Origin: Owenia fusiformis
Lineage: Eukaryota
NCBI GenBank assembly: GCA_903813345.2
Contig: CAIIXF020000001.1
Span: 13,950,001 to 14,014,000, forward strand
Direction of reading: 5' to 3'
Length of the DNA stretch: 64,000 nucleotides
This document shows positions 22,044 to 61,100 of this stretch, piece by piece. The stretch's first letter is position 1, and the number at the start of each line of letters is the position of its first letter. Position numbers and translations under genes: made by a program. The notes under the pieces are model-generated. The model did not search any database. It was not told where the DNA came from and saw nothing but the letters and a program-made list of their open reading frames with translations.

Positions 22044-22917
22044 TATTACAAAGGATAGATTATGTTATGCTTTTACCCTTTTAGTGAGTTCAAGATGCAA
22101 ATGGAAATAAGATATTTCAATGTTGTTAAGGGTAACTCAATATCACCTTGACTTGGTATGTTTAAAAATCACAACAAATGACTGGACGATCTTCCAATCT
22201 TGAGAGCCTATAAATAAAATGGAAATTAAAGGTAGAATCAGAAATCGAAGGGGGGCATCTGTCCCAAACATGGGGTCATATTCAAGTCATGTCTCTTTTC
22301 TTGAAGTTTTCAAGAAAGTTACATGAAGTTCATACCTATTTCATTTGACTTTTTTTTGTAAATGTATTCAAGCCATATTTGTAATTCAACAACACCAATC
22401 TTCATGTTTATATCAAAGTGCAATGTTGTACCTTGCTAATACAGCTTAAATTATATATCTTATTGTGACATATTATACATATACATAAATCTGTTTGGGT
22501 TGGTAGAAAACCAACCAGTTGGTGAATTCAAAATGTAGCTTGTTATCATTTTTCTTGTCTTAGAATTACATATTCTACCTTTAAAATGTTTAAGTCACTC
22601 CTGAAGGAGTATGACAAAACCCCTCCCACTCAATACATCTGTATAAACTAGGAAGACTGGGGCAAAAGGGTAGAGTCCACTATAAAGTAATGCTAACATC
22701 TAGTAACATCAAACAAAGCTGAATAGTAGCTACTTGCATTCCTAGACTCCAGCATCCCTTACTGAACTCAAATATCAAAATTTGCTTATCACATTGTCAA
22801 ATATTGTAATGGCTGACTTGCCTACCGAAAGAATAGTGCATTGGTCACCTGACTAGGCTGACTAGCTCACCGAATTATTAAAATCTCAAGTCGGGTTTTT
22901 ACACCAGTTTGTAATAT

Positions 22918-25900
22918 TTAAACAGGTGTCTCGCTGAACTTCCTCTCTCGTGCTACAGGATATAGTCGATCATCGAATGATCGTCGGAGAGGGTCAGCAT
23001 ATGACCGTCTTAGTGACGTAGGGGTAACTATTGGAGTAGACTTCTCCATTGATGGATGTCGCCATCTTTGGGGTGATCTCCTAGTTGTAGGGCTATGTTG
23101 CTGCATAGATGGCGTGACCATTGTCGGAATTTGGAGACCTCTCATTCGCTAAAAAAGAAATTACATTTTATATCATATTGACTGTAAAAACAAATACTAC
23201 ATAATTGGCCAGAGCATTTGTTTTTTGCAACATGTTAACTCAGATTAAACTGTCTCACTTAATTAAAAAACGACACCTTTTTCTAACTAACCCCAACATA
23301 TTTTTGTTACCATATGCATGCCCCACAATACAACAATGACTTTCACTATGTTCAACACAGAATGTGAATTTTTCCATCAAAATTCAAGCTTAGAATATGT
23401 TATTTTTTGGGAAGGATAGATCCCCTTTACTTAAAGGGCAGCCCCTAAGTACAAAATGAAAGATGAAAATAAATATTCTCAATTTTATGAGATATTATTA
23501 TACTATGTATTCTGCACATTTTAATGAAACCTACCTACAAACTGAGGTATCAAAACAACATCCCAGACCAACTATTTGATGCATTAATATAAATTATAAC
23601 AGAAATTATTATTAGGAAATTAAATCAAAATATTCATTTTCACTATGAACAATTAATTATCAAAAATAACCAACATTATTAACATTAACAGTACCATAAA
23701 TGAAGGAAATCAAATATTTTGTAGGGCTTCAAACATGCAGACATGCATTATATGTTGTTAGTATTCAACACTGTAACAATGTATTATAAGCTACATTTAA
23801 AATTTTTAACGTAAAATCGAAAATGTAGCAAGGGAATGGGCATTTAGATTTAAATGATATTATTATTCAATAACATTCAAAAGGGGCCAGGTCCTTCCTG
23901 ATAGGGCCTAAGTCACAACCACTTGCATCCATTATAGCATCCAGTATCATATATATTAATATGTCTGCAGAAAAGAAAAAACATCATCAGACACTCCAAG
24001 TTCAGGGAATGGGAACACAAAATTAATCATAAGGCCGGAAGAGATAATTCAAATACAGCTGTCAGTGAAAATTCTGTTTTTCAAATTAGTTGTTATTTTT
24101 TGCCTTGGAGTGTCTTTTAGTCAGTAAAGGTTAGGCAGTAATTTGGGCTTCATTCTTATAAACTGGTCACCTCTTCCAGATCCTCATTTCCAGCGTGAGA
24201 AACGAGACTTTGTTCTTCCACGACGTTCCTGCAGAATTCAATATGATTTTACATAAGAGTTTCAAAACTCAAACACTACATAAAATATGCACATAAGCAA
24301 CACCTGTGTATCTCAATTTTATTGTTATGTTATTAATTTCAGAATTACCTTTCCTAAATATGCCATACATTGTGAAACAGAATCATGGCTCTCAATTCTT
24401 GAATCATTAAAGTGCAATGAAAATTCTACAATTGCTTGTGCTGAGCTTTTAATAAGTGTTCTTATATCTACAACTGGATGGGTGGTTTTACAGTTCTAAA
24501 GTTAGGCTAATTAATATGTGTGTAGACTTTGGAATGTGAAAATATTTGCATCTTACCGATTCGAACTCCCCATCTCTTGGACTTGTCGCTGAAGTAGCCC
24601 TTGAGAGACGTGAGGAGATACTACTCTCACTAGATTCACGTGTCACCGAGGGGGTTGTTGATGATGAAGATGGAGACAAAAGGGTCTGAGATGGGGTTGT
24701 GGGGGAAGGTTTCGGAGAGGGCTTTGCTTCTCGTGATAAGTCAGGTTTAGATCCCCGATCTTTTGATCGATCTCGGGATCGAGACCGATTTCTCCTCCCA
24801 GGGATTAGCTTAGCAATGTCCAAACTGAAAGATCTTCGGTAAGGCTTCTTTTTGGTCTTTGGTTCAGGTTCTGATGGCACTACTGGTGTTGGCTCTTGCG
24901 AAGTGGAGGGAGCAGCTGGAGCTACAAGACTAAGTCCTGCTTGCCCTATGGACTTTTCTGTATTGGAATTCTCAAGACTGGAAGACTTCTGAAATAGTTT
25001 ACGTCTTGCTCTCACTGACAAACCGAATACTGATGATTTGGATTCTTTCTCATCCTTGGAAGATTTAATTGATGTTTCCGAAGTGGATTGGCCCATAGCA
25101 CCTTTAGCACTGTCCTCTGATTGTCTGTCAGAGTCATCTGGCTTCATATAGTCAATGTCCTTAACACTAGTCCGTTCACGTTTTGATTTGGAACCACGCC
25201 TATCAGGCAAAGACATAAACCAATCACTCTTATTATAATCATCATAGAAAACCTGTCTTTGAGATCTCGGTGATGATTTCTGATGATCAGAATGTTCAAC
25301 AGTAAGAGTATCAGTTTTACTTCTGCCATAACGTTTTTGTACTCTGGGTTTGGAAGTATCAGATCCACCAGATGGGGTGGGCGAATGGTCCATTATAGTG
25401 CTCCCAGGAATCACTGGGCTCTCATCACCTCTCTCATCAAGAGAGGCACTTTTCTGAAGCATTGGTCTATCCTTAGTAAAGTACTGAATTTGTTCATGTT
25501 TAAGTTTATCATACAAATGTGACACATTCTCTGATGTAAGAACATCAGCTTGATAACGATCCTTAATTTCTTCATAACGTGTTGGGGTACTAGGGACTGA
25601 CCCTGACCTAGAGCCACTGGGGCGGATGAGGAATCCTCTTGGTGGGTCAGGATAGTTTGTCACTTTCTTAACAGGGGACAATGGACCCCTTTTCCTGTCA
25701 GGTGACCCAGTCCGTGATCCTGTTGCACTCTGGGTACCAGATGTATAAGCGCCATAGCGGGAAGTTGGTCGACTGCGGATTGGTCTAGAAGATGTTAAGC
25801 CATATGATGATGGGATTTCTTCCACCTCGAATGACGTTCTCTCTGTGTCAGAGATTAATGTGCTTATATCTGTGGGTGGGGTCTGCTGATATAGCGCTTG

Positions 25901-28900
25901 GTTGCTCATGTCCAGCTCAGATGATGATAAAGTCCTGCAATAAAACATTGTTTGTTTGTTATACCAATGACTCAAGATCACGTTCAGGGAGAGATTGTAG
26001 GCTCAGTTTTGAAACCATTGAGACAATCATTGGTTGATACCAGTTTTTGGATGGAATATAATCACTACTGAAATGAAACTAGTTTCGACTGTAAAATTAT
26101 AATGGAAATCATAAATCCAGATTGTACAGTAATGAAATCAATCTTATTCTGTTTTACTAACCTTCGTAGTGGTAATGGTTCACCATTTTCTAGTTTCTGT
26201 TTGTAATCACTTAGGTCATCTGTGACTCTCTCTATTTGATTCAGGGCCTATAACAACAAACACAACATTTTAAATAGTACAGGTAGAATTGCCCTCGCCT
26301 CCACCAAACTCATTAACAATTGGTATGTTGATGAATAGATTCATCACATGATGATACCCGTAACCCATTTTAAGTTGTGTATCCTTGTATCATGCACACT
26401 CAACACAAAGTGAAGATTTTCTTCTCAGAAGTCATGCATTATTTAAACAAATTGATATATTGTAATATGGTGACAGAATAAATGGCAAGAATAAAACTTT
26501 CAATATTTCAATCAATCCACAGTCAGATTGCATCCTTGTTAATTGTATATAAGAAAAAGGAAATAAGCACAAATTGAAACACACTCAGGTGTGTATAAAT
26601 TGTATACTGTGAATAGTACATGTGCTAATTTTCATAAAATGACATAAATGCTCCACAATATAGGTTTCCAATACAGGACCCTGTATATAAAATGATTTAA
26701 ATTGATATCCTCTTTTTCAATATGGACATGCAGGACATTCCTTATTTTATTTTGATTAAATGTGTATTTTCAATCAAATGAAAACCATGTGATCATCACT
26801 GATTTCCAACTTGATTGAAATACACAACGGCAGAATACCTACATCTATGGTATTATGGTATTCTATCTACTACAAAGGGAGAACAAAAGTTTGAGTTGAT
26901 AAAAGAGGAAGGAAGCTATAAGTAAAGTAGATAATCTTTTACACCCAAGGTTCATATCATTAATTAGCCTTAGTTGTAAACCTGCATAAAGAAAGAAATA
27001 GTTGATATCTAAGAGGGTCTAAAAAGAATCCCGATACAGTGATAGATTCAGTGGTAAAATAAAGTAGGCACAATTTGCTATGGAAGCTTTTCAAGCATTC
27101 AGGTATAAAAATTCTTATATACATGAATGTACATATATACATACATATACTGCAATATTGGCTTTCATAGCTAAACAATTTTGCATAAGGATTTACATGT
27201 ATTGAAGAATTAAACAGAAAGGCACCACAGTGATATAAAGAAAAAGTGGGTATTAAAACATAGATGCTTATGTATAATTCCATACCTGACCAACTCTGGA
27301 TGCCAAGCGCTGAAAAGTTACATAAAAATAAATAAAACATAGCAAATCATAATTTGCATTTATCGAAATGGACATGAACCATTTCACAAAGCAATTGTAT
27401 TACAAACAGTTGAGTAAATGTTATACTCAAACAAAAGAGACATGAATCGCCACATACACTGTAACACACTGACTTACATTAAACATTTAACTCAACTTAC
27501 GTCATCAAGAGTTTTTGCCAGTTCCATTTCTTCCCTGTTGTTTCTGTCCCTGGGGGGTATATAGAGAGACAGACCAGGCCTGGACTTGCTGGGGGAGGCT
27601 TGGGAGGTGGAGTAGTGCTCAGATTTAGTCATTTCTTCAATTACAGGAGTTATAGTCTTCAGCTTTTGCAACTGAAAAATACATACATGACCTGTCATGA
27701 AAAAACATTTGAAATACAAAGCAATATTCACAACCCTTTAAAACAATTTGAAACATGTTTGAAACTGACCTATTTTTATGTAAACTCTATTTTAAACAAA
27801 TGGATAAACTACAAATGGAACTGTTTGTTCTGATTTCATGTTTCTTTAAGTTTACTCTTTGTTTGTGCTATGTTTTCAAATTGAGCACAAAGGCCAAGAT
27901 TTGCATTTGTTTGTGCCTAGTTATAATGAATTATGTAATAAACAACACTTGTATGCAGATTTTGAATCATCATCTTTACAGTAGCTAAACCTTATACAAT
28001 ATACTGTATAGGATACGTATACAATATACTACCTCTAGGATAAGATCATCTATCTTTCTTTTGTCAGACTGCTGGACCTTCTTGCTGTTATCTATACTTT
28101 GTCTCAGTTCTTTCCTCTCTCTTTCCCACTCCATACGCTCAGATTTAACGTTATTCTGGGCAGACTCAAGTTTCTTCTGTAGACTCGTGATTTGTCTGAC
28201 TTTCTCTTCAACCTAATTCATTTAGAAGACAATAAAGATTTTTGCAATTCATGTATTGGTATCCACAATTTATTAGATGATTCATATTAACTACAAGTTT
28301 CTCAATCAGTATTTTACAGATATAGATATGTGAGACCATGAAATCGTTATGCCAAACGTCTTTTACATCACAGTTCAATAGCCATTTGTAAATATTTAAT
28401 AAAAATCATTATTGGTGTTTATGAATTATAGGGAAACCTTGTAGCATGACCCGAGTTTATCACATGTTCTTCACATTATTTTGTCTTGATCATTGATTGC
28501 TCACCTCAGCATTTTTATCCATCATTTTCTTCCTCTCATTCTCCCACTGTCGTTCCTTTGATTCTAACTTGCCCAAAATTTCTCTTTTGTCCAACTCCCT
28601 AGACCTCTCACTTTTCTGAAGCTGTTTCTCCAGGTCTACAGCATGGCTGTGGGACTTATCAAGTAGTTTCTTTATTTCAGTGTGCTCTTTCTCCTCTCGA
28701 CTTTCGAATCTAACACGCTTTGGAACAGTTCCTTTCTGGTTCTTTAGTTGTTCCTCCAACTGGAAAGTTAAACCAGACATTTTTTCACCTATTGTCTTAT
28801 TCAGTAAGAAAATTGTCATTATGAGAAGTCATCATGATGTTATTATTAAATATATATGAAGGCTACAAAGGCTGTGAATGAAGGGGACAGATCAAGAAAA

Positions 28901-34900: not shown

Positions 34901-37900
34901 AATACTCTGCGATAGAATGTTTTATATAATACTGAGGTTGGCTTAATCATACTGAGGTTCAATCCTTTTGTTTCATCTCAAGGCAGATTCTTAACTCATA
35001 AAAACTGATCAATTTTACACTAATATTGTTTTATCGGTTTAGCAGAAACGCCATCATCATTGCGTTTATGACTGCAAATGAACCGTTCGACTTTTATTGA
35101 TGGCTGTATTTCTCTGAATGCATAACTCAAATCACTTAACTTCTATCAACAGAAAGTGCGATTTAACGCGGTACATTTTGGCAGTACTGAGCACCCAGTG
35201 GATTTCTTTGGAATAAAATACCTTGGACAAGTCAAGTTGCCTTTCACGTACACTCCCCTCTATAAGTTTGGCAACTGGAATTTTTCATTGGATGGCATAT
35301 CAAAGCATGTCAATGTTTGGATCTAAATGTGTTCCTTAATTACGATAGTTCGAAAATTAATGACAAATCTGATCTTTTTAAAATCATCAACATAAACAAG
35401 GACATAAGTGATACAAAAAGAAACGTATTGCCAAACTTATGAAGGGGAATGCAATCTTGAAGCGTATTTGGTTAAAAATATTCACCATAAAAATGTTGTT
35501 CCTTATGTAATTCATACTTCATTATCGTTAGCACCTACAGTTCTTTTACCATTTTGCTAATGGATATCAGGCATATATTTTGCTAAAATGTGTTTGTGTA
35601 TATTTTGGTATCAGGCATATATTTTGCTAAAATGCAGTTGTGTTTATTTAAATGAGACCAATAGTAATATTTTCCTCTGAATCCTTTTAGCAGGCGCTTC
35701 AAACGAAACATATAAAGTAATGTTTTGGAAAATGGATACCTCCAGATATTACTCTGCCTAGTTATCTTAAGTTCAGAGCAAATACGGGGACGTCTTCCTA
35801 TGATTGGTTAGGCTAATCCTAGATTCGATCGGTGCCACTCGAATGTCTGAACCATGTAATCTTGTTTGATAGACAAGGGCCCATAGGGAATATTAATACA
35901 AATCATAATTTCTAGGATATAATTTTCTTTCCCTGTAGCTGTCACAGTTCATCAAGTGTGTCAATAGACAATAAAATCCATATATCTACGAATGGTATGG
36001 TATGTTAGAATAATGTGAAATTTCGTTCATAAGCTTTCAGAAATTGTCGTTCCACATTTTCAAAGAACGAAAACTTGAGAAATGTTGTATGGGCACTTGG
36101 CACTTGTGAGGGTTCATCTGCCCATCTATCAATTTTAATTGTATCTTTATTTCTGTTATTTATATTAAGAAAACGTGTAAATATCCACATAAAGTGTGAA
36201 AATCATTACCAATTTAGTGTCTATTGCACAATTATACTGAACATACGAATTTACTACCTTTTAAAAGGAGGGAATTGAAGTTAAGGAGTACAGCTGGTCA
36301 AAACTCGGGGAAACTAGCTGTTCTTGTGATATCCCAACTCGTGGATCATCTCAACTCCAGAGTTAAATAGATGTCAGCAAGCAACATCTTTATAGATGGA
36401 TTTGTGAAATAAGTTGTGGATTTCATGAATGCGAGCTACCCTAACCATGTTTAGCCACAACAGAGGTGATCATTGATAGTAGTCGTGTAAAATTTCCACA
36501 CATTTCCCCACTCTGTTGTTTACCTGGTCAGAGCATGCCCCGCTTTCTTCATAGAGAAATAATGAACAAAGTAAAGAACCGTATGATAAGACATGTATGT
36601 ATAAATGTTACTGACTGCAGAAGACCGTACGTTTGCCGTAGCAAAAACTGGGATTTAAATATCAATGGCGAAACTAGTTGAACTTCGTCTAAAGTGCCAC
36701 ACTTAATCAGGTTGGTGAAGAACATACATTAATTGCCAGTATAAAATGAACATATTAAGCGTACCTCCCATTCCCGTAGGACAGTTGCTGGATCGCCTGT
36801 CGTTTCACTACTGAAGACATCATCACTGACACTGCTCACACCACCTGGTGGAGAGGAGCGGGTAAACGTCATAGATGTCACTGTGTTCGTCTTCTCGGCT
36901 GTCAGCCGTTCAAGCTCCCTTTAAAACATCGGATATTAAACCATATAATTGTTATTGATTAATATTTACATTTCATTTAGTCAATCAAGCAAGCCACCAG
37001 AGTTCAGATATAATATACTTCAGGATATGCAAACGTATGTATCATGTACAAAATGAAATTAGTGAGATTGCAATACCTCTGTGCAACATCAAATCTATCA
37101 TTTACAAGTTCAACATGTTCCCATGTACAAAATAAAAGTAGTGAAAAGATCGTTTTGCAATACCCTGCGCAACATCAAATCTATTATTTACAAGTTCAAC
37201 ATGTTCCCATGTACAAAATAAAAGTAGTGAAAAGATCGTTTTGCAATACCTCTGTGCAACATCAAATCTATCATTTACAAGTTCCAACATGTTCGCAGTG
37301 ACACTTTGTTTGCTGTCTAACTGGTCTAGTTCTTCAAGGAGCTCCTTCTCCCGTTTTCTAAAGCCATCCTTCATTAGTTCTAACTCATCTCGAAAGTGTC
37401 TCACTTGGTCCTCTAGGTCGACATTGTCCTCTTCTCTACTCTTAACGATGATAAAGAGGTCAGCTGAAACAAGACATGTCTACGTATACGAATTCTTTAG
37501 AAGCACTATTTTAGTTTGATTGTGCTCATCAACTGTTCCCCTTGCGTTTTCCTCTAAAACTATGCGGATGGGTTGATATATACTATTTGAAATTATGAAG
37601 AGGACAGTTTACTTAGAGGACAAGATAAACGAGTGTATTTCAAGATTAAATTATGCACCCAAATAAAACGTGAAACCAACAGGCTTACATACTACACTTC
37701 AAAGAATTCAAATGACTAAAGATTAAAGGAGGAAGTGTATGAACCTTAGCGAAACATAGCCAATATAATGGAATTGTATTTAATTAGAACAATAAACTTC
37801 ATCGAAGGGATGCATTTGGACTTACAAATCTCTTCCTCCATTTCTTTAGCTTTTTCCCTGAGCTCACGAACTCCCAATTTGTCAAACTGAATTTTAGACT

Positions 37901-40900
37901 TTTTGGAATCCACTTTCCGTTTGGATTTATAGTTGAGCAGTTCCCTGGAAAGTTTAGAATTTTCTGACTCTAAGTCCGCCACCTTTTTTCTCAATATTGA
38001 TGTATCGTGTTCATGAAGACGCAGTTGTTCTTGTAAGTCTTTAGATTGAACTATGGAATCTGACAGGCTACCCTGAGCTTTGGAACACTCCATTGTAACA
38101 GTTTGTGAGCGATCACTGAGGTCTTTGCATCGTTCTTTGAGACGTGTGTTCTCATCCTGCAATGATCTCAGACGCTGTTTAAGCTCCATTGTCAGAACAG
38201 CATCATCATCAGATTGCATTGCTTCAATGGAAGTACCAGACCCTACTTGTCTGGAAGAAACTTGCTCTAGTTTTCTATTCCTAGATATTAACCTCTCGTT
38301 TTCGGATTCTAACTGGGCTAACAAACTACGTAATTTCAACTCTTCCTTTTGGTAAGAGTCAATCTGTCTTTGCATATCTAATTGTTGCTCAGAGTCTAAG
38401 GAATGACTTTTTTGTAACTTCGGTCGATTGGATTTTGCTTGCATATGAGATCTGGCCACCTCTGAAAGGCGTTCGATTTCTCGATTTTTCTCAATGATCT
38501 TCCATCTGAGACTGTCCACCTCCTCTGTTAACAGGCGGATCTTTCCATCGTAGTAGCTATCGGGGAATGGTGAAGACATGGAATCGCTTGAGGTACTCTT
38601 TAAACGTTGCTGTAGGAACTTAACTTCAGATTGCAGATTGTCACACTCTAGTTGCATATCGCTTATTTTCCTTCTGAGCATACTAGCTTCTTGTTCAGCT
38701 AGTTCCATTTGTAGCTTAAACTCAAGCTCCTTCTCAGTCAGAACCTCTGGATCTTCATCTAGGCCTAATGAAGATTTCTTCCCGCCAGTCTCACGGAATC
38801 TGGTTGACCTTGCAACTGCTACCTTTTTTAGTTGTAGCGACAGGCCTTCGTTCTCCTCTTCCAGGTCACTTAGCTTTCTCCGCATGATCTTAGTCTCTTC
38901 CTCTGCATATTTTAACTGTTCTTTCACATCTTGTTCGCGCTCCATACTGTCAGAGAGGTCCCTCATCAGCTGCTGGGCGTCATACTCATATGACGACTGT
39001 GCACTACCCGTCCTGGTTAACCGCAACTAAGGAAACACAGAAAATAATTGAAGTTTATGTTAAAATGTTGCAATTTAGACGATTTAAAGAACAATAGGTT
39101 TGGGCAATGCAAGATATCGTTGTTATGCTTATTAGTTAATGCACAAGAAATTTTCATAAAAAGGATGGAAATTCAAAAGCACACAATCAAAAAGAAATAG
39201 ATAATAAACAAATTGGAGGACTTACTGGATGCTGTAATTTGAACCTGTCAATGTTAGAGATGTTACTAGTACTCAAAGACTGAAAGCAAAGAAACAAGCA
39301 CTTTTGTAAAATACGAGCCATAGAAAACAATACACACAACAAAGACACTCCGTCCTGTTAACGCTGACCCAACATTAATCGTTGATGTACTTGTCACAAA
39401 AACAATACACACAACAAAGACACTCCGTCCTGTTAACGTTGATCCAACATTAATCGCTGATGTGATATATGTTGTTAAAGGTCTTGAATGGGATATATGC
39501 AGAATTAACAACATAAACAGTTAGCATCGACAAAAGATGTCTCTATACTTTCCCGATGCCTTGTAGAACATAAAGCATAACATAAAGCGCATAATCGTTA
39601 ATCATCTGTTAATTGAGCAGCAGAACGCAGCAGGCTAATATAACATAATCATTTATTCTACCAAAATACAACAACAGCAGATGTATATTTTTATATCGAA
39701 TAACAAATCAATGCTATACTTGATATTAGTTCCCTGTACAAAGTGTACAATGTTGTATCAATGCTTCCCTAACGTTAGAATTCCGTTATAATAATATTTG
39801 ACAGATTAACCCAAAGGAACATATATTGATTGTTTCTTACTGGCATATCTAAGATATAGATAAATCATAGAACAATGAAATATGGAATGTCACCTTTTTA
39901 TCAGAAAATGTCGTCTGCTGTGAAGTTTGGGCGGGAGAAGACGGACTACTGGCGCCATCTGGGGTTGGTCTTTCCATAGACGTAAAGGCTTCCGAACGCA
40001 ATTTGATCAGCTGCAATACATAAGAATGAATAAACAAATGTTCAAAGGATGAGACAGTTTTTTGTTTTCTTTTGCAACAACATCAGCACCTGGTAAGTGA
40101 TAAAAATAAGTATCGGTAACGATTGCACTACTTTGCATCTACCCCGTGATGTTGCTTCTGAACGCGTAACCATGGTAACACATTTTATGTTAGTTGATTC
40201 AAGTAAAATGTTTTGTTAGATAATCATACTGTGATATATAACTTGAATATCTTGAACTTATCTCACATTCTCCAGAAATAACAGTTACTGAGAGGAAGTG
40301 GATCGCATTATAAAATAGCGTATGCCTACAGCCAATTTCAACATTGCAGTAAAGGCGATAGTTTTCCAAGTATATGTACCATATATTATAGAACTGCGGG
40401 AATCCATCGTTTCAACACTTGCAATCAATTTTAAGATAAATATTTAGAATATTAAAGAATCTGTATTCATAATTATTGCATCAATTTAGCATACTGGCAT
40501 ATGTGCCAATGGATGTTATCTATTTCAATCAGGAATTTCTATTACCGTACAGTTCGGAATGCTGTTCATATAAACAGAAACATACGAACAAGAATACGGC
40601 TGTAAGGGTTAGGATGCAGTGAAGATGAGCAACGTTTTAACCTGTTTACAAATGTACACATGTACGCGCATGTGCTAAATGGGAAAATAGTCCAAATAAC
40701 GAAAAGATATAATAAATAGTAGAACTATAAGCAGGAAAAAGAACACTGGTCAAAGGGAATCAAACCCCAACACCTAAAAGAATAATCTAACGTGCGGGGA
40801 AACAATGTCCAACGCCCGCTTCCACCCCACCCTTCATGAACCATAGTCATAGTCCAAATCCATTAGAATATGAGACTGTTCAGTATTACAGGGTGAGACA

Positions 40901-49900: not shown

Positions 49901-52900
49901 GTCACGACTTTTAAAAAATCCCCAAAATGCATACATGTACTTTATTTCAGGATTTTTACAATAATTCTTTCTTTAAATTTGTATGTACCATTTTCATTAT
50001 TTGGGAGAACCTAAACATTTTCCCCATTTTTGCACTTTGATTCCTCAATAGCTTCACCAATTTGTAATATAACCTGAATCATTTGGGAGATATTGTATTA
50101 AAATCATAAGAAATATAAATATATTGGTGGGTGAATTGTACATGTTGCTTGTAATCTTGTCACCACCTTTAGATCTAAATCTAACCTTTAACAAATACCT
50201 ATCTTTTAACTTGAACGCGCCTGGTTCGCTCTTTTGACCGAAATATAGGCTATACTTGCTTCTGTTCGTGTCAGTTAATAACGCAGATGCGAGTAGGTAG
50301 TTACCAGTTTCACCACCAGGTGGCTCGTTCGGGTCAGATAGCATGGCGGGTATAGTAGAAAGTTCCCTTTAACTTAAATTACATCTGTTTTAGTGGTTCA
50401 ATTTTCATATAACCCTTATGTATCTAATAGTTATGCAAATCAAAATATGTCCAGTAAATGAAAATGTTATCTGACCAATACAAGAAAAGATATTCCACTT
50501 TTTGTGATTTCGTAACATGGGCTCTATGGAGAATCAACCCGAACTAGAAGTCACACATTCAAAAAGAATTTAATTTTCAAACTTGATAAACAATTTTCGA
50601 AACCATATTTTAGATGTACTTTTACATGTAGATTTCAAATATAACATCGCTTTTTGACTGAATTTTGAATATTTAATGGCGTAAATCAAGATTTTTTCTA
50701 CTCGCATCTAGTCTATTAATAATGATTTCTTAGTTTTTTATTTTTATCAGTGTGTCTAGGCCTATAAGGGTATGGTATTGCTATTTATGCTTCCCTGAGT
50801 TTCTCAACATCCATATATTTTCAGATAAAGCCAGAATCAATCCGACATAAAGATGCTATATCAAGATATCGCCGAGTAAAAATTCCGTGGCATACTGACA
50901 CCATGCAACAACGTGTACAAGCAAGTGTACAGTATGCAACGTTCAAGTTGTCAACGTTGCAATTGCAAGCAGAAAATCTCTCTCTAGTTAGCGTGTGACC
51001 TCAGGGCGACCTTTGACCTCGACCCCATGTTGGAGCATGGGCGTATTTTTTTTTCGTATGACCGCGGTACAAGTTAATTTAATACGGTCTGAGCGCAATG
51101 GTCAAGGTGATAGTTAAACAAACAGATAAACTGTCAGACCTCTTCCGAGCTTCAAAGTAAGATACAATGTCAGTTTGACTGACTAGATTTGTTTACAAAT
51201 AGTCTACACGATCGCTACCTGCCTACAGATTCTACGAAAGTTCAAAGTTCTTGCATGTTTTATCCGCCTGTAGACTTGTCATACCTGGAGGCCTAGAGAA
51301 AAACACATCACATCAAAACAGACGATTGTTTCATTCCTAAAGAATTTCCTCAACAATGAAAGAATAAACAACGTACTTAGACCAAGTGGCTTTTATCTAA
51401 CAGTATTAAGTATCTCTTTGGAACATCGTGTCATAAGACGTTACTTGATTCAGTAACTGGCACCCACCGGTGAACATTTTGAAGGGATGAGAGATAAGGA
51501 TAACCTCGGTATGAAGATGAGATGTTTTTAGATGCTCATTCTTCGAAGAATGGTAATAGTAAGAATCGGATGGTTTTATTGATTCTACCAAATATTGTTT
51601 TATTGGGATATGCTGAAGGGTCATTTTCCTCGTAAGGGTTGACTTAATCTGGCATACTCTGGGTTGGCGCTTTGGAATCCATTTGAGAAAAGGAACGTTA
51701 CCCATGGTTCAATTTTGAAGAAAATTCATTTTTGTGTATTTTCATGGGCTTCTAGTTGAAAGCCCATGATATTTTCCAACAATAAATATTCACTTTTTAC
51801 AACCAGGAGAGGTGAGAATTGAGAGCTTTAGAGTTGTTGTTGGTTTTATCGTTAGATATACTTTATTGGGGTTTGTGTGTATTTTGATCCTCCTAATGCT
51901 ACCTGTGATTTCTATTCATACTTGTTAATAGATTATAACAACTGTCATAACACAAACAAGTGGTATTCGAAGTGGAGTTTTGTTTGAGGCTAATAGAAAT
52001 TCAATAATATACCTGTTCCCTCAGGCGTTCAGCCTTTCGAAGCTTGAACTGCAGAATTCTAACGTTTTTCGATGTCATCTCAAGTTCTTTTTGGAGTTCC
52101 CTATAAAGAAAACATTACATCAGATCAATATAGGCAATGTGTTTACAAGTTCTCAAAATTAACAGCCTAACCAGAGCACTCATACATATCGGATTTTATA
52201 TCATGGAATTATTCAATGTAATTGATTATACAACTAGAAACAACGCTTGAAACCAATTCGAAGCGGCGATGTGTGGATTACCGATTGTGAACAAGTATAC
52301 AAACAGGCTCTCTCAAGCGGTTAGCCTAAACTTCAACTTGCTTATGGAAATATATTTATGATAGTGATTATTACCTAAATTCAAGAGTTTCTTCCTCTCT
52401 AAACTGATCCTGCATCTCTTCCATTTCTTGCTGCATTTCAAACATTTCCTCCTTGATACATTGATTCTCTTCCCGTAATTCATCGCAGATCTTTTGCAAC
52501 TCATCCATGTTATCTTCAAGCTCTTGAATGACAGCATTTTTGTCTTCTTCCTGGGAGTCTCCTGATTTTGTCCTTTCACTCTCTGGAAGGCTTGATTCCA
52601 TAATTTTGTCCCTGAGCGTACAGTTTTCACGGTCTAGCGTTCTGAGTTGATCCTGCAAATCACTAATAGCTTTTTCATTTCGAAGATTTATCTCTTCAAA
52701 TCGTTCTTCCTTAGCCATAAGGTCATCGTCGAGGTCCATGTAGTCCTGCTCGAGCGAGGCATATTTGTCCTCAACCTGCGAAAGTTCCCGTTCAAGATCC
52801 CGAACACTTTTCTTTGATCCTTTATCATTTTTACTACTTTGCTTATCATCTTTACTGAGTGCTTTAGCGCCATTATTCCCCGCTGAAGGCGTCTCGGAAC

Positions 52901-53576
52901 CTAGTTTTAATTGGGTCCTTGGAGACATTGTCTCAGCTTTTCTAGCTGCCCGGCGTTCCATACTGTTTTCCCGTCTTACCTTTTTACTAACTCCATCTTG
53001 TTGCTCAGACTTTCCCTGCGAGGAATATAATACTGATGATTTAACATTGCCAGGTGCGCTTGTCATTTGAGCCGAGGATTTATTAGATCGCTTATCATCT
53101 CCCGAAGTGTCCGAAATATCGTCTCTCCTCCGGCCAACTTTATTTGAAGCCGGCGATGTTGGTCTCATAGACCCAAGTGCACGACGGCTTGGACTTTGAC
53201 CCGGACTACCATTTGCCGTTCGTGTACCTGTTCCCCTAGCCTTGTTCCTCGCACCACCACTGCCGACGCCCCCTCCCGCGCCATTGCTATCTCGTTTCGT
53301 ATTCACGTCATTAGTGCCTGTATCAATTGCTGTTTTATCCTGCCTGCTGTTCAAAGAACTATTTTTACTACTATCATCAACATTTTTATCTCCATTTTTG
53401 ACCTTTTCGACAAGCTTCTGGTCGGTGCTACGACTACTACTGGGAGAATGAGACCCCTCACTACTATTGTGTTGTGATTTTGTCCGGAAACAATGTTTAC
53501 ACATAGATCGCCTCCATGTTTGTGATTCGAATCCTGGGCATTCCTTCTTAGGAGCTTCCTTTGCCTTTGAGCTCAT
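22918..53576 (-). CDS. SOGA/MTCL-family (microtubule cross-linking factor-like) long coiled-coil protein, ~2574 aa, 22 exons
   Basis: Exons 53576-52375, 52100-52013, 44766-44590, 44298-44203, 40010-39894, 39026-37826, 37463-37250, 36918-36765, 34175-34011, 33134-33009, 32700-32515, 32073-31966, 31639-30590, 30241-30022, 29630-29479, 29178-29011, 28759-28505, 28212-28033, 27671-27501, 26247-26162, 25934-24557 and 23148-22918. All GT-AG, phases consistent, 7725 nt total. SOGA-like motifs: EMEEMQDQFREEE..RELQKELEMTSKNVRILQFKLRKAE, ELKMAQEVSVRLHDELE, DVKEQLKYAEEETKIMRRKL, QMELAEQEASMLRRKI. Confidence 0.87.
32198..32375. mobile_element. Tc1/pogo-like MITE, same family as 57765-57942 in opposite orientation
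   Basis: Shared core gaggaagggtgtccactag...gaggtgttcactaa...ggttttactg|ta. Confidence 0.65.
37068..37293 (-). repeat. Tandem triplication (86-87 bp) of a SOGA-like exon end and its donor site
   Basis: ttgcaatacc(t)ctg.gcaacatcaaatctat.atttacaagttc x3, with donors at 37249, 37163 and 37076. Confidence 0.9.
39324..39463. repeat. Direct tandem duplication, ~75-bp period
   Basis: aaaacaatacacacaacaaagacactccgtcctgttaacg.tga.ccaacattaatcg.tgatgt x2. Confidence 0.85.
45304..45391. repeat. Tandem duplication, ~43-bp unit
   Basis: tacaattcattatctacccttaagccaaat.gc.agtcctcat x2. Confidence 0.85.
47524..47780. repeat. Diverged tandem repeat, ~114-118-bp period, ~2.3 copies
   Basis: cccaattaat.catttgatgtaatatcgttagatttagattcacatg at 47524 and 47639; partial third copy at ~47756. 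Confidence 0.75.
48160..48856. mobile_element. Unclassified hairpin-plus-IR-module repeat, copy C (reverse layout)
   Basis: IR pair tttatcctataccaagtagagtttt (~48165) / aaaactctacttggtataggataaa (~48700-48724), then an imperfect palindrome 48729-48856 with apical ccttcggtccctcagg. Confidence 0.6.
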
Positions 53577-55140
53577 TTTCCTTAAGAACACATCATAATT
53601 CCTTATCTCTGGTAGTCTTTTACTCTTTTAATAGCCAAATGCATGTTGTTTTTCTGTGGCAGCTAGGTGATATGGACGGGACTACGAGGCCAAGGCTAGG
53701 CAGGTGAAAGCAGCAGCAGCAGACGATCTACACGAACATCCCATTCATATCATACTACGTCACTCGTTCTTATTGACACCATTTACCTTTTTTGGAAAAG
53801 GTTAAAGGTAAACCGTATATTTGGATGCACAGTAATCCAATCCAAGCATTAGCTTTCGATATCTGCTTGGAGATTGTATCAAGGATAAGCTTCCTGCAAT
53901 CTCCTTCCAGCAGTGTATACCAGCGCTGTTTGTTTAAACCATTATGATAATCCCAGATTATCCCTACTTGTTACAGATCCATCTATTTAGATAATCAAAT
54001 ACAAATAAATAATTTGTGTGAAAGGTATGTATCGATTGTTCAAAGTATGATCATGCCATCTTTTCTGTAATATTCTATATATTTTTGAATGACATTTTGG
54101 ACCCTCTGGTTTGTGAAAGTTTCCAAAGAAAGACAACATGGACTTACATGTTCCAATTTTCCAGTCATTTTGACTTTATGTCGATGATGATATTTTATTA
54201 AATTTCGTAGCCCTAAAATATGAACTTTCTGCTGCGGCGTGGAAGAACTGAAATCTACCGATGTGTGTGTAACATGAATTTTGTACCATTTGTGAGCATA
54301 GAATGAAATATTTGTTTTATTATATCAATTTCATTTATGCCCTATAATCTGAATCTATGAGCAAGCAATGTGCAAGTCCAGAGGTCTTTCATCAATTCAT
54401 TGACCGATGATGATCGATATGTGTGAAAATTTTTGGTATTTTTGATCACATGATATTCATATTTTCCTGCAAAGCAATTACTTTTAAAGTCAAATAATTG
54501 CTACCAAGGTAAGTATTACTTTGATATGACCGACATTCTGTAGCATGTAAAAATAGTTTGGTTTATTTTATTTACATATATATTATGTACATTACCTTAT
54601 CATCCTTACATTAGTTTCAGAGCAAGTCACATTATATTCTTAGAAAAGGCAGAAACTAATAATATCTCATTTTATATCCATTTTGCAATGCTATTTTAAA
54701 GGCAGAACTGGTAGCAGAACAACTGTAAACAATATGTTTCTAAAGTAGCATGTTTGAAATTGATTGGATTATTCAGTTTTTCCTTTTTATAAATACACTA
54801 CACTTTTCTAGCAATATAAATATGCATCAACAAGTCATTTAGGTACAACCATGAGGTGTTCCCTTAGCTGAAAAAGTGTTACCTGAGCCGTTTATCTCAA
54901 AACAGGTAGACAATTTACCCATTAGCATACTGTAAATGCCCCATCAGATCAAAATATCCAATGACTACTTTAAGAGAAATTAGCAAGGCATTTCAAATTA
55001 TCCAAGTATTGGATGCAGCTTCAATGTTGGGCTCGGATCACTGCATGAGCTACAGCTATATATAAATCCAGTTTGTATTCACACCATGGTGATCGCAGCA
55101 AGTAATAGTTCTTACTAGTGTGTGTAGATTAAGATGCAAT

Positions 55141-58100
55141 TTATTTCTTTCCAAAGGTTTCATTAGATGACAATAGAGCAAATGCCAACGACTCCACTGC
55201 AAAACAGAAAAGGTATTAATAATTAATGGCACAACAACATTTTCAGCTCACGCGGGTGATCTATTGTAATCACCCACTTGTATTTGCTGTTTGTAGCATT
55301 CATTTATATGTCCAAATGTTTTGTTCATTTCATTGTAGAGCAAATGCTCCTTTTGAGTAAAAATTGGAAATGTTTACTCTATAGCCCTCACACCAGCTTC
55401 TACTATTTACACCCTCAAATTCCCACATTACTGAACTGCTACTCCCTCTTCTACTCTATTTTCCCCTATAACTGCTCCTCCTCTCTATTTCCCTCAGAGT
55501 TTTAGGAAGACGGAGTTAGGAGGGAGGATAACATTTAAAATGACTTGGTGCAGTACTAAATACATGTTCAAGTGCATTACTTACAGTGTTGGAAAGAGCC
55601 TCTCTTAATAACATTGTTGAGGAATGATGTGAGGAACTGTATACATCGAGAAAAGTCAAGCTCCATCTCTGAAAGGATCTCCTCACTGGAAAATAATCAC
55701 CCAATTTAATTCAAGTAATATTGAATAATTTATAATAAAAAAGTCATATGAACATAGTTCTATTTTATACGAGCATTATGTCATTTTTAAACAAGGTATT
55801 TAAATGTCTGGTGGCACATAGTTTTTAAAACTGAAGACTGCTTTACCGAAACTAAGACGTAGCAAAATTATGAATGCAAATTACAAGATTCAATTGTACA
55901 ATCTTTGTTACAGACAATGAATGCTGACACTGATGTCAAATGCCAGTCACAAAAACCAATGGCTATAACTAGTTATATTTTAAAACTGGGTTCGATTTTT
56001 TCATTTTGCAAATAAATTATTTTTGTAATATTAAATAAATTGTCAAAGTATTAAATAATGTTCAGTTTTAATCAATTAACAGGAATGAGTTATTTGTAAC
56101 TTTCATCAACAAAAACATATTTTGAAGACTTTCCTTTAAGACATTTTTATTTTTTGGCTGCCATTGTGCTTACATAAAGAATAGTCACAAATATGAGAAT
56201 TTTCAGATAGTACATACTTGACACTGTTGATGCCACTGTCCCAATTTGCTTGGAAAGCGAACACCAGATTGAGAACTTTGAGCACTGCCTCTTTTATAAA
56301 GGCAACCCTCTGGTGCAAGAGGCACCTGTCATATATGTTGGCAATGTAGGTATTATGCAGCTTAATGACCTGGTCTAGGTCAGGAGCCTGTTGAATATCT
56401 TCCTGGAACTCTAGCCCCGTATTTTGTAAGATCTGCAATGTGATCATCAATGTGCATGTTAGTTAAATAATGTGGTACAAATCATCATCTGCGCATGCTC
56501 GGTCATTCCTGCATTCCGACCTTCGCTAATATAGCATGTACCACTGTTCCCGGATGACGGGAGTCGAGTGAACGAAGATGAGAAATCATGGGATTCTAAC
56601 ATTGCATGATTTAAGACAAGTTATTACTCCAATAGAAAAAGTACATCAAAGTATGTAGTGAAATCATCCAAACACTGCTCAATGTAGACACTCCGACACA
56701 TTTTCTCTGTCCAAATTTGTTATCTTCCATTGACTCACATACTTAAAAAACCTTGAAATGAAAACACCTGCTAATCTGAACACTTTTGGCTGGTCCCACA
56801 GGCATTGGGATTAGATTGGTTTTACTGTACATCAAAAGTATAATTATTAACAAGGCATCAACATGCAAAATGTCACAACCTGCCATTTGTTACAGACACT
56901 GAATGCCAACTGCCAGCAACCAACCGCTGAACACCATCCACAAAAATGTTGGAGGCTATAACAATATGTCACCACTTGTGCTGGTGACATAAATATAAAT
57001 TATTCCAACTTTTAACTTCAAGGTTATCGTTTTACAGTGACTTCATAAATACTTTTAAACCTTTTCGTTTAAAACATATCAAACTTACTCTTGTGACTAT
57101 GTAGTTGTGGAGACTGTTAACAAAGTGCAGAAGTTTCATTCTGAACAGATGCATTCTGTGGATCAAATGTTCTGATCTCTGCCCTCCATCCTGACCTTTC
57201 AGATCTAAAAAACAGAACATTCACTAAATGGAAGCATAAGAATGTGCAACATGTTAAAAAATATACATACAGGGTATCTTATAACAACTGTCCTCAATCA
57301 ACCACCGTTGCTAGATAGCATAATCCCACATGATATGTGTCATATGAAAGCTCTTATTGAATCAACTAGCTTAATAGTTTGCAGTGTACCCTGCGAATAG
57401 CTATGATATCCACACATCACAACACGATTACCTGTAGTAATGAACAGATACTGAGGGATGCTGAGGATAAGGCTCAATGAAATTTGAAAGAAAAACTTGT
57501 TATTTATTAAATATTATCCAGAGAGCTCTTATACAAGAAATAATGTACAGCAATCTGCTCGTGCTTTTTTATCTATTCTTAGCAAATAAACTGACCTATA
57601 AACCGGAGTTCATCCAAGCTGTATTTGGCACGTTTGATTTGAAGCAGGAAGGTGAATATTTGGTTGTAGTAATCCTGGCATTTAGAGCTGATCACCACAT
57701 TAACAGGCCATGGGACCTACAACAGTTATCATGATATTGGAATTATACATCTTTAACTGATATACAGTAAAACCTGTTTTAGTGAACACCTCTCACTAGG
57801 GAACACCTGTCGCTAGTGGATACCCTTCCTCAGCACATACTCTACTGACTTCTGTATAAATTACCCTCTCTGTATTGAACATCTACCAACACCAAAATTT
57901 TCTTATTGGCAAGAAAATGTTCAATATACACAGGTTTTACTGTACTGTACTGTACTGTACTGTATGGTACTGTACTGTACTGTTGCATGTTGCAACTGAT
58001 GACTTACGTCGCAATACATGTTTTTGGATTTTCATTTTCAAAATGATCAGTATAGATCAATACTCCATTGACACATACGTATATTAACTTAAATTTCTTT

Positions 58101-61100
58101 TTAGTAGGTTCATGACATTTCGAGTAGGTATACAATCCCTAACATACCTTATACAGCAAAGCAAGGCTATCTAAAGCATTCACAGGTCCTTTTATGTCTT
58201 TGGCACCCTTAGTTTCATCAATGAACAATGACAGACGTGAGGCTTCTTCAGGATGATGTTGCTGCAATGCATCATGGAGCACTAGGTTCAGATAGGACAC
58301 ATCTTTCCAGTCCTCGTGTAGCCGCAACTGAAACATGAATCAATGATTTTCTAAGTTAACTGAAACACAGGTGACTGAATCTTCAAGTTTATCCATGGAT
58401 CATTATGTCTTCAAGATGGATCATCATGGATTCCTGAATCTTCAAGTTAATTGTAACATGGATGAATGGAACTTTAAAGTCAAAGGAATTAGAATTGATA
58501 GATGAGTTGATAAGTTTCCCAAGAATTACCAGTAGTTTGCAACATTCTTTGCTCTCACGATTCTATGTTAAGCATATTTTCCAGAAAGTCCAACAGTTCT
58601 AACTTTATCTCAGAACAATCCTTTGATTTAAATGTTATCTGGCAGAGAATTGAAAAATGGGACAGACAATTATCACTGTAAGCATTTCAAGTCAATCTGA
58701 CCATGACTTCTAAAATTATCACTATGTAAAAAGGATGTTAGATGTGAGAAATGTTCACAGATCTTACCTTGTCAAATATGTCTATGTAGAAGTCATACAT
58801 CGTGTCACTTGCTTCCATCAAGTAAAAATGCTGCAAATGAGAATTTAGAACTATATTATAAGTGTTGTACAGATGTATTTGAAATTGAATACACAAGAAC
58901 AGTTTGATTCAGATATCATACTTGCAGTAAGGATTAAAGGATTTGATTGATTTAATCTATGGTGGTAATGTGTTCTCTGCAAGAAATTTTTATATCTTAA
59001 TATATTTAAAAATTCAAATAATTAGCTATTCAAAATTTAAATTAACAATTCTGCCATGCTGACGAGTTTAAAAAATATTTCTAATTTAGTGATATCAGCA
59101 AAAATAGTAAATTTTTCTATAAATAGCTTTACCCTCATGGAGGCCAGATAATCCATTAGGTGAAACTCTTGCACTAGGATGTCAAGTAGACTCTTGCAAA
59201 CATGCAGATACTTGTGTTCTATGTGAGGGTGGAGAGAGCTCTGTACAGCTAGCTGTACAGGACACATACAGTCAAGGTTGAGCTTTTTCAATTTCCTGTA
59301 ACGCAATGAGAACATGACACATTTATAGAGGGTTTAGGACTAATAGGCATTCTCTAGAGCTAGACACATAGGGTACATACAGTCAAGATTTAATCAATAT
59401 ATACCAAAACTTTACAAAGTGTATGAAGAAAGGTTTGTGACCAGTAGGTGTTCTGTTGAGCTGGATACATAGGGTACATCAAGTCAAGATTTAGTTATAA
59501 TAGGCTCCCAAAGATTTAAAAAAATATATGGAATAAAATAAGGTACAGTATAATCACCCAAGGGTTTCATCTTCTTTTATGGTTAATGACTGTATTTTCT
59601 TTTTGCTTTCCATGTTTTCAAAGTTCAGTTTCAGGAATGGATTGTGTATTCCTTTTACATACAACTGTTTGTTAATATCTTGGCTGTCAGAGCAATCTGT
59701 GGGTGCAGTTACTGTATGTGAATCTGGAGGTTGGGGGTTCTCATTATCACTGGTACTGCCCAGCTCATCTTGTAAGGATTCTATGAGGCTGTCATATAAA
59801 GACTTTTGAGTGTGTTCTTAAAGTAGAAGTGTCGCGATTAATTGAAAGCTAAAATCAATGATACAAAGGAGTGACAAAATTCCAATTACATTTTTCCAAT
59901 AAATTGATTTTTCTTCATCATCACAAATAAATAAAAAAAAGATATCAGTGAGCCATTTAATCTATGCAAAAACGTCAAAATCTCAGGACATACATACAAT
60001 ACAAAACCTTTGGAATTTCAGAATATAGGCACTACATGAATCATATGATATGGGACAACAAAAAGATTCTGAATGAGACAAAATTTGGGGAATTTTTTTA
60101 TGTTTTACCCTATCTAAATCTTCAATACCTGTTCTTCCAATAACGTCATTGAGTCGGCCAAGATTCTCCAATACCTGCATTGATTTGCCAGCAAGAATAA
60201 CCTTCTCTAGTACTGGCAGTAAAAACTTGGGTACACCTTGTAGTCTTTCACTTATTGCATGTTCATTCATACGAGTCTGCTCAGATGATGCATCATCACT
60301 TTTAGATTGTTCAGTTGATGACTGAGATTTTGACTGAGAATTCCTTTCTTTTGAATATTCAGTGTCACTAGTACAGTCAATTGTAAATGCTGTTTCCCAG
60401 AATGTTTCATCTAAAGTGGACTTTCCTGTATTCCTGTAAGGAAACAAGGTAATAAGATTTATTTCAAATGGTGCAGTTCATATCTATATGCATTTTTTTA
60501 CATTTTGGTCTTTACTCTGGTGGCACTTGTGGTTGCATATTTGGTAACTTGGATGTAATGCTGCTTATCATAAAAAAAATTATTCCACATGGGAGGTGTT
60601 CCACTTTCAGAGGTTCGTTGTACAAAAACAAGCGGGACTGTGAAAAGTGTTTCACTTAAAGAGGTGTCCCACTTACAGGGGTGTTCCACTTTACAGGTTT
60701 TACTGTAGTAAAGGATAAGGGTTAACTTGAATATAATCTTTTTTTTGAATTTTCTTTTCAAATTGACAAATTAAATACAGCTGTCATAAAAAATCTCAAA
60801 CAAGGCATTAACATGCATATTGTCACCACCTGCCATTTGTTTGAGACGGCAATTACTGAACTCCAATCACTGAATGCCAAACACAAACCACCAAACACAA
60901 AAAAGTCGAAAACTATAACATTATTTCACCACTTATGGTGGTGATTATGTCACCACTTGTGGTGGTGACATATTACAATCTAAACTATAATTATGTTCAT
61001 TCCTGACCTTCTTAAGCTTGCAAAAGTTATACCTTTATTTAAGAAGGGTAATAGAAATGTCTTTACGAATTATAGACCTGTATCTATTTTGTCAGTTTTT

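Follow-up and report, generated by a model that had tools for sequence, protein, structure and literature searches.

How many C-termini does the SOGA/MTCL-like gene of the annelid Owenia fusiformis produce, and which of them end in a ligand for PDZ domains? The gene lies on the minus strand of the stretch analysed here (the window), 64,000 nucleotides (nt) of contig CAIIXF020000001.1 in assembly GCA_903813345.2 (positions 13,950,001 to 14,014,000; coordinates below are those of the window). The original prediction, made from the sequence, held that three alternative terminal exons are spliced from the donor at 26162, ending in ESLV, ETPV and VTSL, that all of them present class I PDZ-type ends (x-[ST]-x-[VLI] at the C-terminus), and that a region of about 460 amino acids (aa) can thereby be included or dropped. 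RNA data reveal two mRNA forms, which differ by a 58-nt cassette exon and are used oppositely in different runs. The 3' end of the gene is thus alternatively spliced, as had been proposed, with two observed termini rather than three, and it probably constitutes a two-state, regulated on/off switch of a single conserved class I PDZ-type end.

Two mRNA forms differing by a cassette exon

The region 22300-26400 was compared with four RNA runs out of 21 listed sequencing runs, 20 of which come from one organism; the four are two Logan contig sets (X1 and X3), which lose rare variants, and two raw stranded RNA-seq runs (X19 and X20); junctions with fewer than 3 reads were left out of the listing. 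The first mate of all raw reads lies on the plus strand, which fits a stranded library of minus-strand RNA. Four junctions were listed across the region. The 86-nt exon, which ends in phase 2 as described earlier, is joined to the Ser/Pro/Arg-rich 1378-nt exon in all four runs (26162>25934; contigs of X1 and X3, 1 read in X19, and 5 reads in X20). The latter is spliced either directly to the last exon (24557>23148; depth 157 in X1, 1 read in X19, and 4 reads in X20), confirming the predicted path to …RKFSETPV, or to the cassette (24557>24228; depth 445 in X1 and 732 in X3), which continues to the last exon (24171>23148; depth 623 in X1 and 1288 in X3). By one junction or the other, the last exon is entered in all four runs; RNA depth is at exon level across 22300-23148 in every run, with the 3' untranslated region running below 22918 to at least 22300.

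The two forms are distributed unequally. Inclusion of the cassette is the only form in X3 and the dominant one in X1, where both were found (445-623 vs 157), while X19 and X20 contain skipping only (5 junction reads, with depth 0 in the two bins over the cassette). In X1 and X3 the inclusion depth, which as a contig depth is not true quantification, amounts to 445-1288, compared with 430-900 for constitutive exons.

The reading frame is supported by the RNA as well. Twelve differences between RNA and window are listed in the 1378-nt exon, 10 of them synonymous and 2 conservative (P>S and S>T), and the frame rich in synonymous changes is the one that enters the cassette in phase 0. As the cassette length is 3n+1, its inclusion shifts the frame. 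When the cassette is skipped, the 1378-nt exon joins the last exon and the protein would finish with a 76-aa basic, Ser/Pro-rich tail ending in …RKFSETPV. When it is included, translation would stop after 14 basic residues (ERRGRTKSRFSRWK), so that the 76-aa tail would be lost together with the PDZ ligand; the alternative end, …SRFSRWK, is not a PDZ ligand. Under the 50-55-nt rule, stops closer than this to the last exon junction escape junction-dependent decay. With its stop 13 nt before that junction, the included mRNA should escape this decay and be translated; its predicted stability rests on this distance of less than 50 nt, as well as on a depth equal to that of the constitutive exons.

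The acceptor tract of the cassette and its donor (GTGACC) look weak when judged by eye; weak splice sites are usual for regulated exons. A pair of UGCAUG hexamers, 8 nt apart, follows the donor at a distance of about 425 nt. Of the 21 TGCATG occurrences on the minus strand of the window, no other two come within 30 nt of each other, and this twin element may act as an Rbfox-type splicing enhancer. A contig of X3 (370 nt, depth 63; window 23835-24200, minus strand) crosses the cassette donor into the intron, and X3 depth immediately 3' of the cassette is 50-63, as against 4-28 in other intron parts. It could reflect partial intron retention or an alternative 3' end; since the stop lies upstream, such read-through would lead to the same protein. 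A comparison of the cassette tail …SRFSRWK with the alternative end RFTWSF… of a Bactrocera latifrons protein gave 3-4 residues alike, which was taken as chance.

Conservation of the E-T-x-V end

Orthologues were collected by a search with the SOGA exon at E<=1e-5, which yielded 72 protostome proteins of 747-2130 aa, 69 of them with a precomputed PF11365 match. Among these matches, 8 of the 12 named non-insect orthologues have E-T-x-V as their C-terminus. The window protein in its cassette-skipped form ends in …FSETPV, the gastropods Gigantopelta aegis, Patella caerulea, and P. vulgata in …FSETAV, Oppiella nova in …AETNV, Varroa destructor and V. jacobsoni in …FTETQV, Macrobrachium, Penaeus vannamei X10 (and its Logan twin), and Homarus in …ETDV, and Hyalella in …ETRV. 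Six further cluster members share the motif (four Varroa isoforms from two species, Patella vulgata, and Penaeus vannamei X10). In the window background, E-[ST]-x-V ends occur in 3 of 3989 frames. The tails are otherwise too diverged for BLAST, except that a (K/Q)RWR.xS.E block near the C-terminus aligns between the window and both gastropods. Persistence of the motif across these lineages, set against the low background, indicates at the sequence level that the ETPV end is conserved by selection.

E-[ST]-x-V is the classic ligand type of the MAGUK scaffolds. The ESDV ends of GluN2A/B, for instance, bind PSD-95-family MAGUKs according to a section of PMC3958896. By analogy, E-T-x-V would dock the Owenia protein on a PDZ scaffold, for which a Dlg/PSD-95-type or a Dishevelled-type protein is the obvious candidate.

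Transcript isoforms of B. latifrons have, directly behind an acidic Ser cluster, 10 aa in place of the last 79, and models of the barnacle Amphibalanus amphitrite show three different C-termini; C-terminal alternative splicing thus recurs in the SOGA-like family. In searches with the short 3' parts of the Owenia gene, the 76-aa last exon retrieved no candidate near homologue, and BLAST of the predicted 36-codon exon, both cassette frames, and the last exon against 100 collected proteins gave nothing below E ~1.7.

Alternative explanations

That ESLV and VTSL serve as termini alongside ETPV is now very improbable. All three frames are indeed open and end as described: from an acceptor AG at 26068 a frame of 36 codons runs to ESLV, and from another at 24229 one of 24 codons runs to VTSL. 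Moreover, both the 1378-nt exon and the 58-nt cassette are 3n+1 long, so that the cassette in place of the long exon would keep the frame, and its frame +1 is free of stops. The transcripts, however, follow other paths. No junction from 26162 into 26067 was listed in the four runs, and the bin 25999-26135, which covers most of the 36-codon exon, has depth 0 in each of them, unlike other introns, where pre-mRNA reaches depth 4-63 in X1 and X3. The acceptor at 25934 follows 25 nt after the end of this exon, neither AATAAA nor ATTAAA lies in between, and the exon is therefore not possible as a terminal one; were its acceptor used, the only effect would be an upstream extension of the 1378-nt exon, with a stop that precedes two junctions by more than 1.4 kb. 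It may still be used rarely or in particular tissues, a use for which the four runs give no support. The acceptor at 24228 is genuine, although its partner is the donor at 24557 rather than 26162 (the junction 26162>24228 was not listed in any run), and the exon it opens is an internal cassette, read in another frame and left at 24171, so that VTSL, lying beyond this donor, stays unread. Nor did any junction in the four runs skip the 1378-nt exon, as dropping the 460-aa region would require. The peptides of the two exons ending in ESLV and VTSL resemble none of the 100 collected proteins by BLAST. As a chance baseline, 153 of the 3989 stop-terminated frames of at least 10 aa in the window (3.8%) have class I ends, as do 18 of the 228 AG-started, phase-compatible frames of the region. 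Two such ends among about eight distinct intronic candidates are mildly unusual (binomial P ~0.035), but this is a post hoc figure and not compelling, and by this measure ESLV and VTSL sit at chance level. The class I assignment therefore survives for ETPV, which is expressed and conserved, and the idea that splicing swaps PDZ partners gives way to removal of the motif, because the second real terminus carries no ligand.

Cassette inclusion might alternatively be unproductive, either as noise or as a poison exon whose regulated use reduces the output of protein, without a second protein isoform. The frame shift and premature stop, splice sites that appear weak by eye, and a 14-aa tail with no relatives detected by BLAST among the 100 collected proteins would all suit such an exon. 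Yet the included form is the dominant or sole assembled form in X1 and X3, at a level comparable to that of constitutive exons and not expected of a decaying or noise transcript, and its stop is too close to the last junction, which makes this explanation quite unlikely. It is also unlikely, if slightly less so, that ETPV is incidental and has no PDZ partner, the switch mattering instead through removal of the 76-aa basic tail, which might bind microtubules or be phospho-regulated. Class I-type ends are common enough to arise by chance, in all 57 insect orthologues the C-terminus is a basic tail that lacks the motif, and the Owenia tail contains RRSY and RRSF basophilic-kinase-type sites in addition to the RWR block that it shares with gastropods. 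What speaks for a ligand is that exact E-T-x-V is kept in lineages of annelids, gastropods, mites, and crustaceans, although BLAST no longer detects similarity in the residues before it, and that the background of E-[ST]-x-V ends is so low.

Several points weigh against the on/off switch nonetheless. The comparison comprises four runs, of which the raw ones contribute totals of just 5 and 6 informative junction reads and the contig sets no true quantification. Not every member of the family has the motif: among the 72 matches it ends none of the 57 insect proteins and is absent from 4 of the 12 non-insect models (a millipede, a barnacle, a partial Penaeus monodon model, and an older P. vannamei model). 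The included form could be destabilised by the nonsense-mediated decay rules of this animal. Both isoforms are known from RNA alone, and PDZ binding is a prediction. The on/off switch of one PDZ-type end still accounts best for the observations and is considered probable; its regulation would depend on tissue or stage.

Identity and structure of the gene

Assignment of the gene to the SOGA/MTCL-like family, also part of the original prediction, is upheld by the PF11365 (SOGA) domain, which scores 65.1 bits (cut-off 31.1). PF14818 (SOGA1/2-like coiled-coil domain) stays under its cut-off of 26.6 in two exons (22.6 and 14.5 bits). The very long protein is encoded mainly by exons of a charged, coiled-coil type, and its C-terminal region is basic and rich in Ser and Pro. 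The best orthologues of the SOGA exon are gastropod proteins with ~40% identity, and tblastn places gastropod proteins in collinear order along 38966-24890 of the window. Such a ranking, with molluscs at the top, agrees with a lophotrochozoan origin. The gene extends from ~53.6 kb to below 22.3 kb on the minus strand (Table 1), its start being placed by the first exon, which has an N-terminal Cys motif shared with arthropods. In a small local database, residues 30-58/64 of this exon align with residues 9-45 of orthologues from arthropods (E 0.005-0.04). The motif CPGFESQTWRRSMCKHCF at 53576-53470 (minus strand), possibly a small zinc-binding module, matches the first ~45 residues of the orthologues from shrimp, Drosophila, and Anopheles. 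Gastropod models begin at the SOGA exon, without the N-terminal ~500 aa common to the window and arthropods, and are probably truncated at this end.

Upstream of the switch, loose ends of RNA sequences at 26249 have a consensus equal to the end of the exon 27671-27501 followed by a 24-nt in-frame microexon (1 mismatch in 30), which fixes the phase of the 86-nt exon. Such ends were found in X1, X3, X19 (3 reads), and X20 (4 reads). The 30-letter loose end itself has 0 direct matches in the window, because it spans a splice junction and a single-nucleotide polymorphism. One 18-letter X3 contig end joins the exon 27671-27501 straight to 26247 (2 mismatches), which suggests that the microexon is sometimes skipped.

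The 459 aa encoded by the 1378-nt exon have six exon-level homologues (E 2e-9 to 1e-3), none a full-length protein, so that they say nothing on tails; a search for longer homologous proteins found none among 7996 scored candidates. Common to these six are short conserved islands in otherwise disordered sequence (YASGTQSA.GSRD.SPD, NYP.PP.FLI.PS, DVLTSEN..LY.KL, KEKRKLF.K..S.D.S, AAPST, and basic-x-x-S-(L/V)-D), and two of them (P0003 and P0006) start and end at the same exon boundaries. Basic stretches are present both here (…KTKKKPYRRSF…GRRNRSRSRDRSKDR…) and in the 76-aa tail. The upstream neighbour on the same strand (~55000-63700) is a gamma-tubulin complex component gene, with GCP_C_terminal scoring 30.9 bits (cut-off 25.8) and a weak GCP_N_terminal match.

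Table 1 Features of the SOGA/MTCL-like gene in window coordinates
Feature	Position	Strand	Details
First coding exon	52374..53576	-	ATG 53576-53574; Cys motif CPGF…W…C..C; 52374 is the end of the open frame
SOGA-domain open frame	37749..39026	-	PF11365; bounds are those of the open frame that holds the exon
171-nt coding exon	27501..27671	-	LQKLK…AKTLDD; its last 8 bases occur in spliced loose ends
24-nt in-frame microexon	27286..27309	-	RLASRVGQ; spliced read ends in 4/4 runs
86-nt exon	26162..26247	-	Ends in phase 2, leaving AG of a codon; junction 26162>25934
Predicted 36-codon exon	25959..26067	-	Open frame in the 227-nt intron, …ESLV and stop; no RNA support for use; no protein similarity (100 proteins)
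Ser/Pro/Arg-rich exon	24557..25934	-	1378 nt, 459 full codons; ends in phase 0 at GTAAGA donor; continuous contigs
Alternatively spliced cassette exon	24171..24228	-	58 nt; phase 0 reads the 14-residue end, then stop; junctions 24557>24228 and 24171>23148
TGA stop of the cassette-included isoform	24184..24186	-	Codon 15; 13 nt upstream of the last exon junction
Two UGCAUG hexamers	23734..23747	-	8 nt apart; ~425 nt downstream of the cassette donor
Last coding exon	22918..23148	-	76 codons and TAA; junctions 24557>23148 and 24171>23148
E-T-P-V codons	22921..22932	-	Class I PDZ-type C-terminus of the cassette-skipped isoform (…RKFSETPV, then TAA)

Relation to known systems

The closest described proteins are vertebrate MTCL1 (SOGA2) and MTCL2 (SOGA1), which share with the Owenia protein the SOGA domain, the long coiled-coil build, and a basic, Ser/Pro-rich C-terminal region; the PF14818 match of the Owenia protein is under the cut-off. 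MTCL1/2 bind microtubules via a C-terminal KR-rich region, as reported in part of a preprint on MTCL2 (bioRxiv 10.1101/2021.09.07.459224), and the Owenia protein would be expected to do likewise. A passage of the same preprint describes invertebrate genomes as being without an MTCL1 homologue (10.1101/2021.09.07.459224), a claim that contrasts with the 72 protostome proteins collected here. A literature search on MTCL/SOGA with PDZ and on invertebrate homologues returned, among the papers covered, no description of a C-terminal PDZ ligand in the family. Orthologues exist as gene models, annotated as interaptin-like (Gigantopelta aegis), SOGA3-like (Homarus americanus), or myosin-9-like (Varroa destructor), which resemble the window protein in PF11365, collinearity, and the E-T-x-V end; they differ in sequence (best identity ~40% over the SOGA exon), and none shows the short basic alternative end.

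Frame-shifting 3' cassettes that remove a PDZ ligand are already known from other genes. In PMCA pumps, insertion of an exon changes the reading frame, and the ET[ST][LV] end is absent from the a form. PMCA4b reportedly binds MAGUK PDZ domains (a finding ascribed to Kim et al. in 1998). Splicing at site C (a vs b), near the 3' end, alters the C-terminal tail of these pumps, as outlined in a portion of PMC8428515. The gene analysed here is alike in this respect, although PMCA is a membrane pump and not a cytoskeletal coiled coil, and its tail also holds a calmodulin-binding autoinhibitor. A second parallel is the glutamate receptor subunit GluN1, whose C2' end is the PDZ ligand -STVV. The first stop lies in its 3' cassette C2, without which the transcript encodes the other C-terminus, according to part of PMC3958896. 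The likeness extends to the stop-carrying 3' cassette and to the E-S-D-V end of GluN2A/B, which is of the same E-[ST]-x-V type; GluN1 differs as a receptor subunit, and its exon sizes and sequences are unrelated. The features of PMCA site C and GluN1 C2 recur in the Owenia gene, with both inclusion and skipping junctions, a 58-nt exon containing a stop, and differential use across the four runs.

Implications for the family

Invertebrate SOGA/MTCL-like proteins are essentially unstudied, and an arrangement known from pumps and receptors is here applied to a new gene family. A more speculative idea, tentatively held and rather doubtful, is that E-T-x-V is an ancestral protostome (perhaps bilaterian) feature by which SOGA/MTCL microtubule crosslinkers are tethered to a polarity scaffold with PDZ domains (of Dlg/Scribble type, or Dishevelled), with an old regulated 3' switch that engages or releases the tether. 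Support for it comes from the B. latifrons isoforms, which have the same architecture as here, from the three ends of the barnacle models, and from a 2026 preprint, part of which describes recruitment of Dishevelled-2 by MTCL1 in a manner needing the Dvl2 PDZ domain (10.64898/2026.10.08.757526). That annelids and molluscs as well as mites and crustaceans retain E-T-x-V suggests one specific class of partners, the PDZ scaffolds of cell polarity, and the splice switch provides a natural plus/minus pair for experiments.

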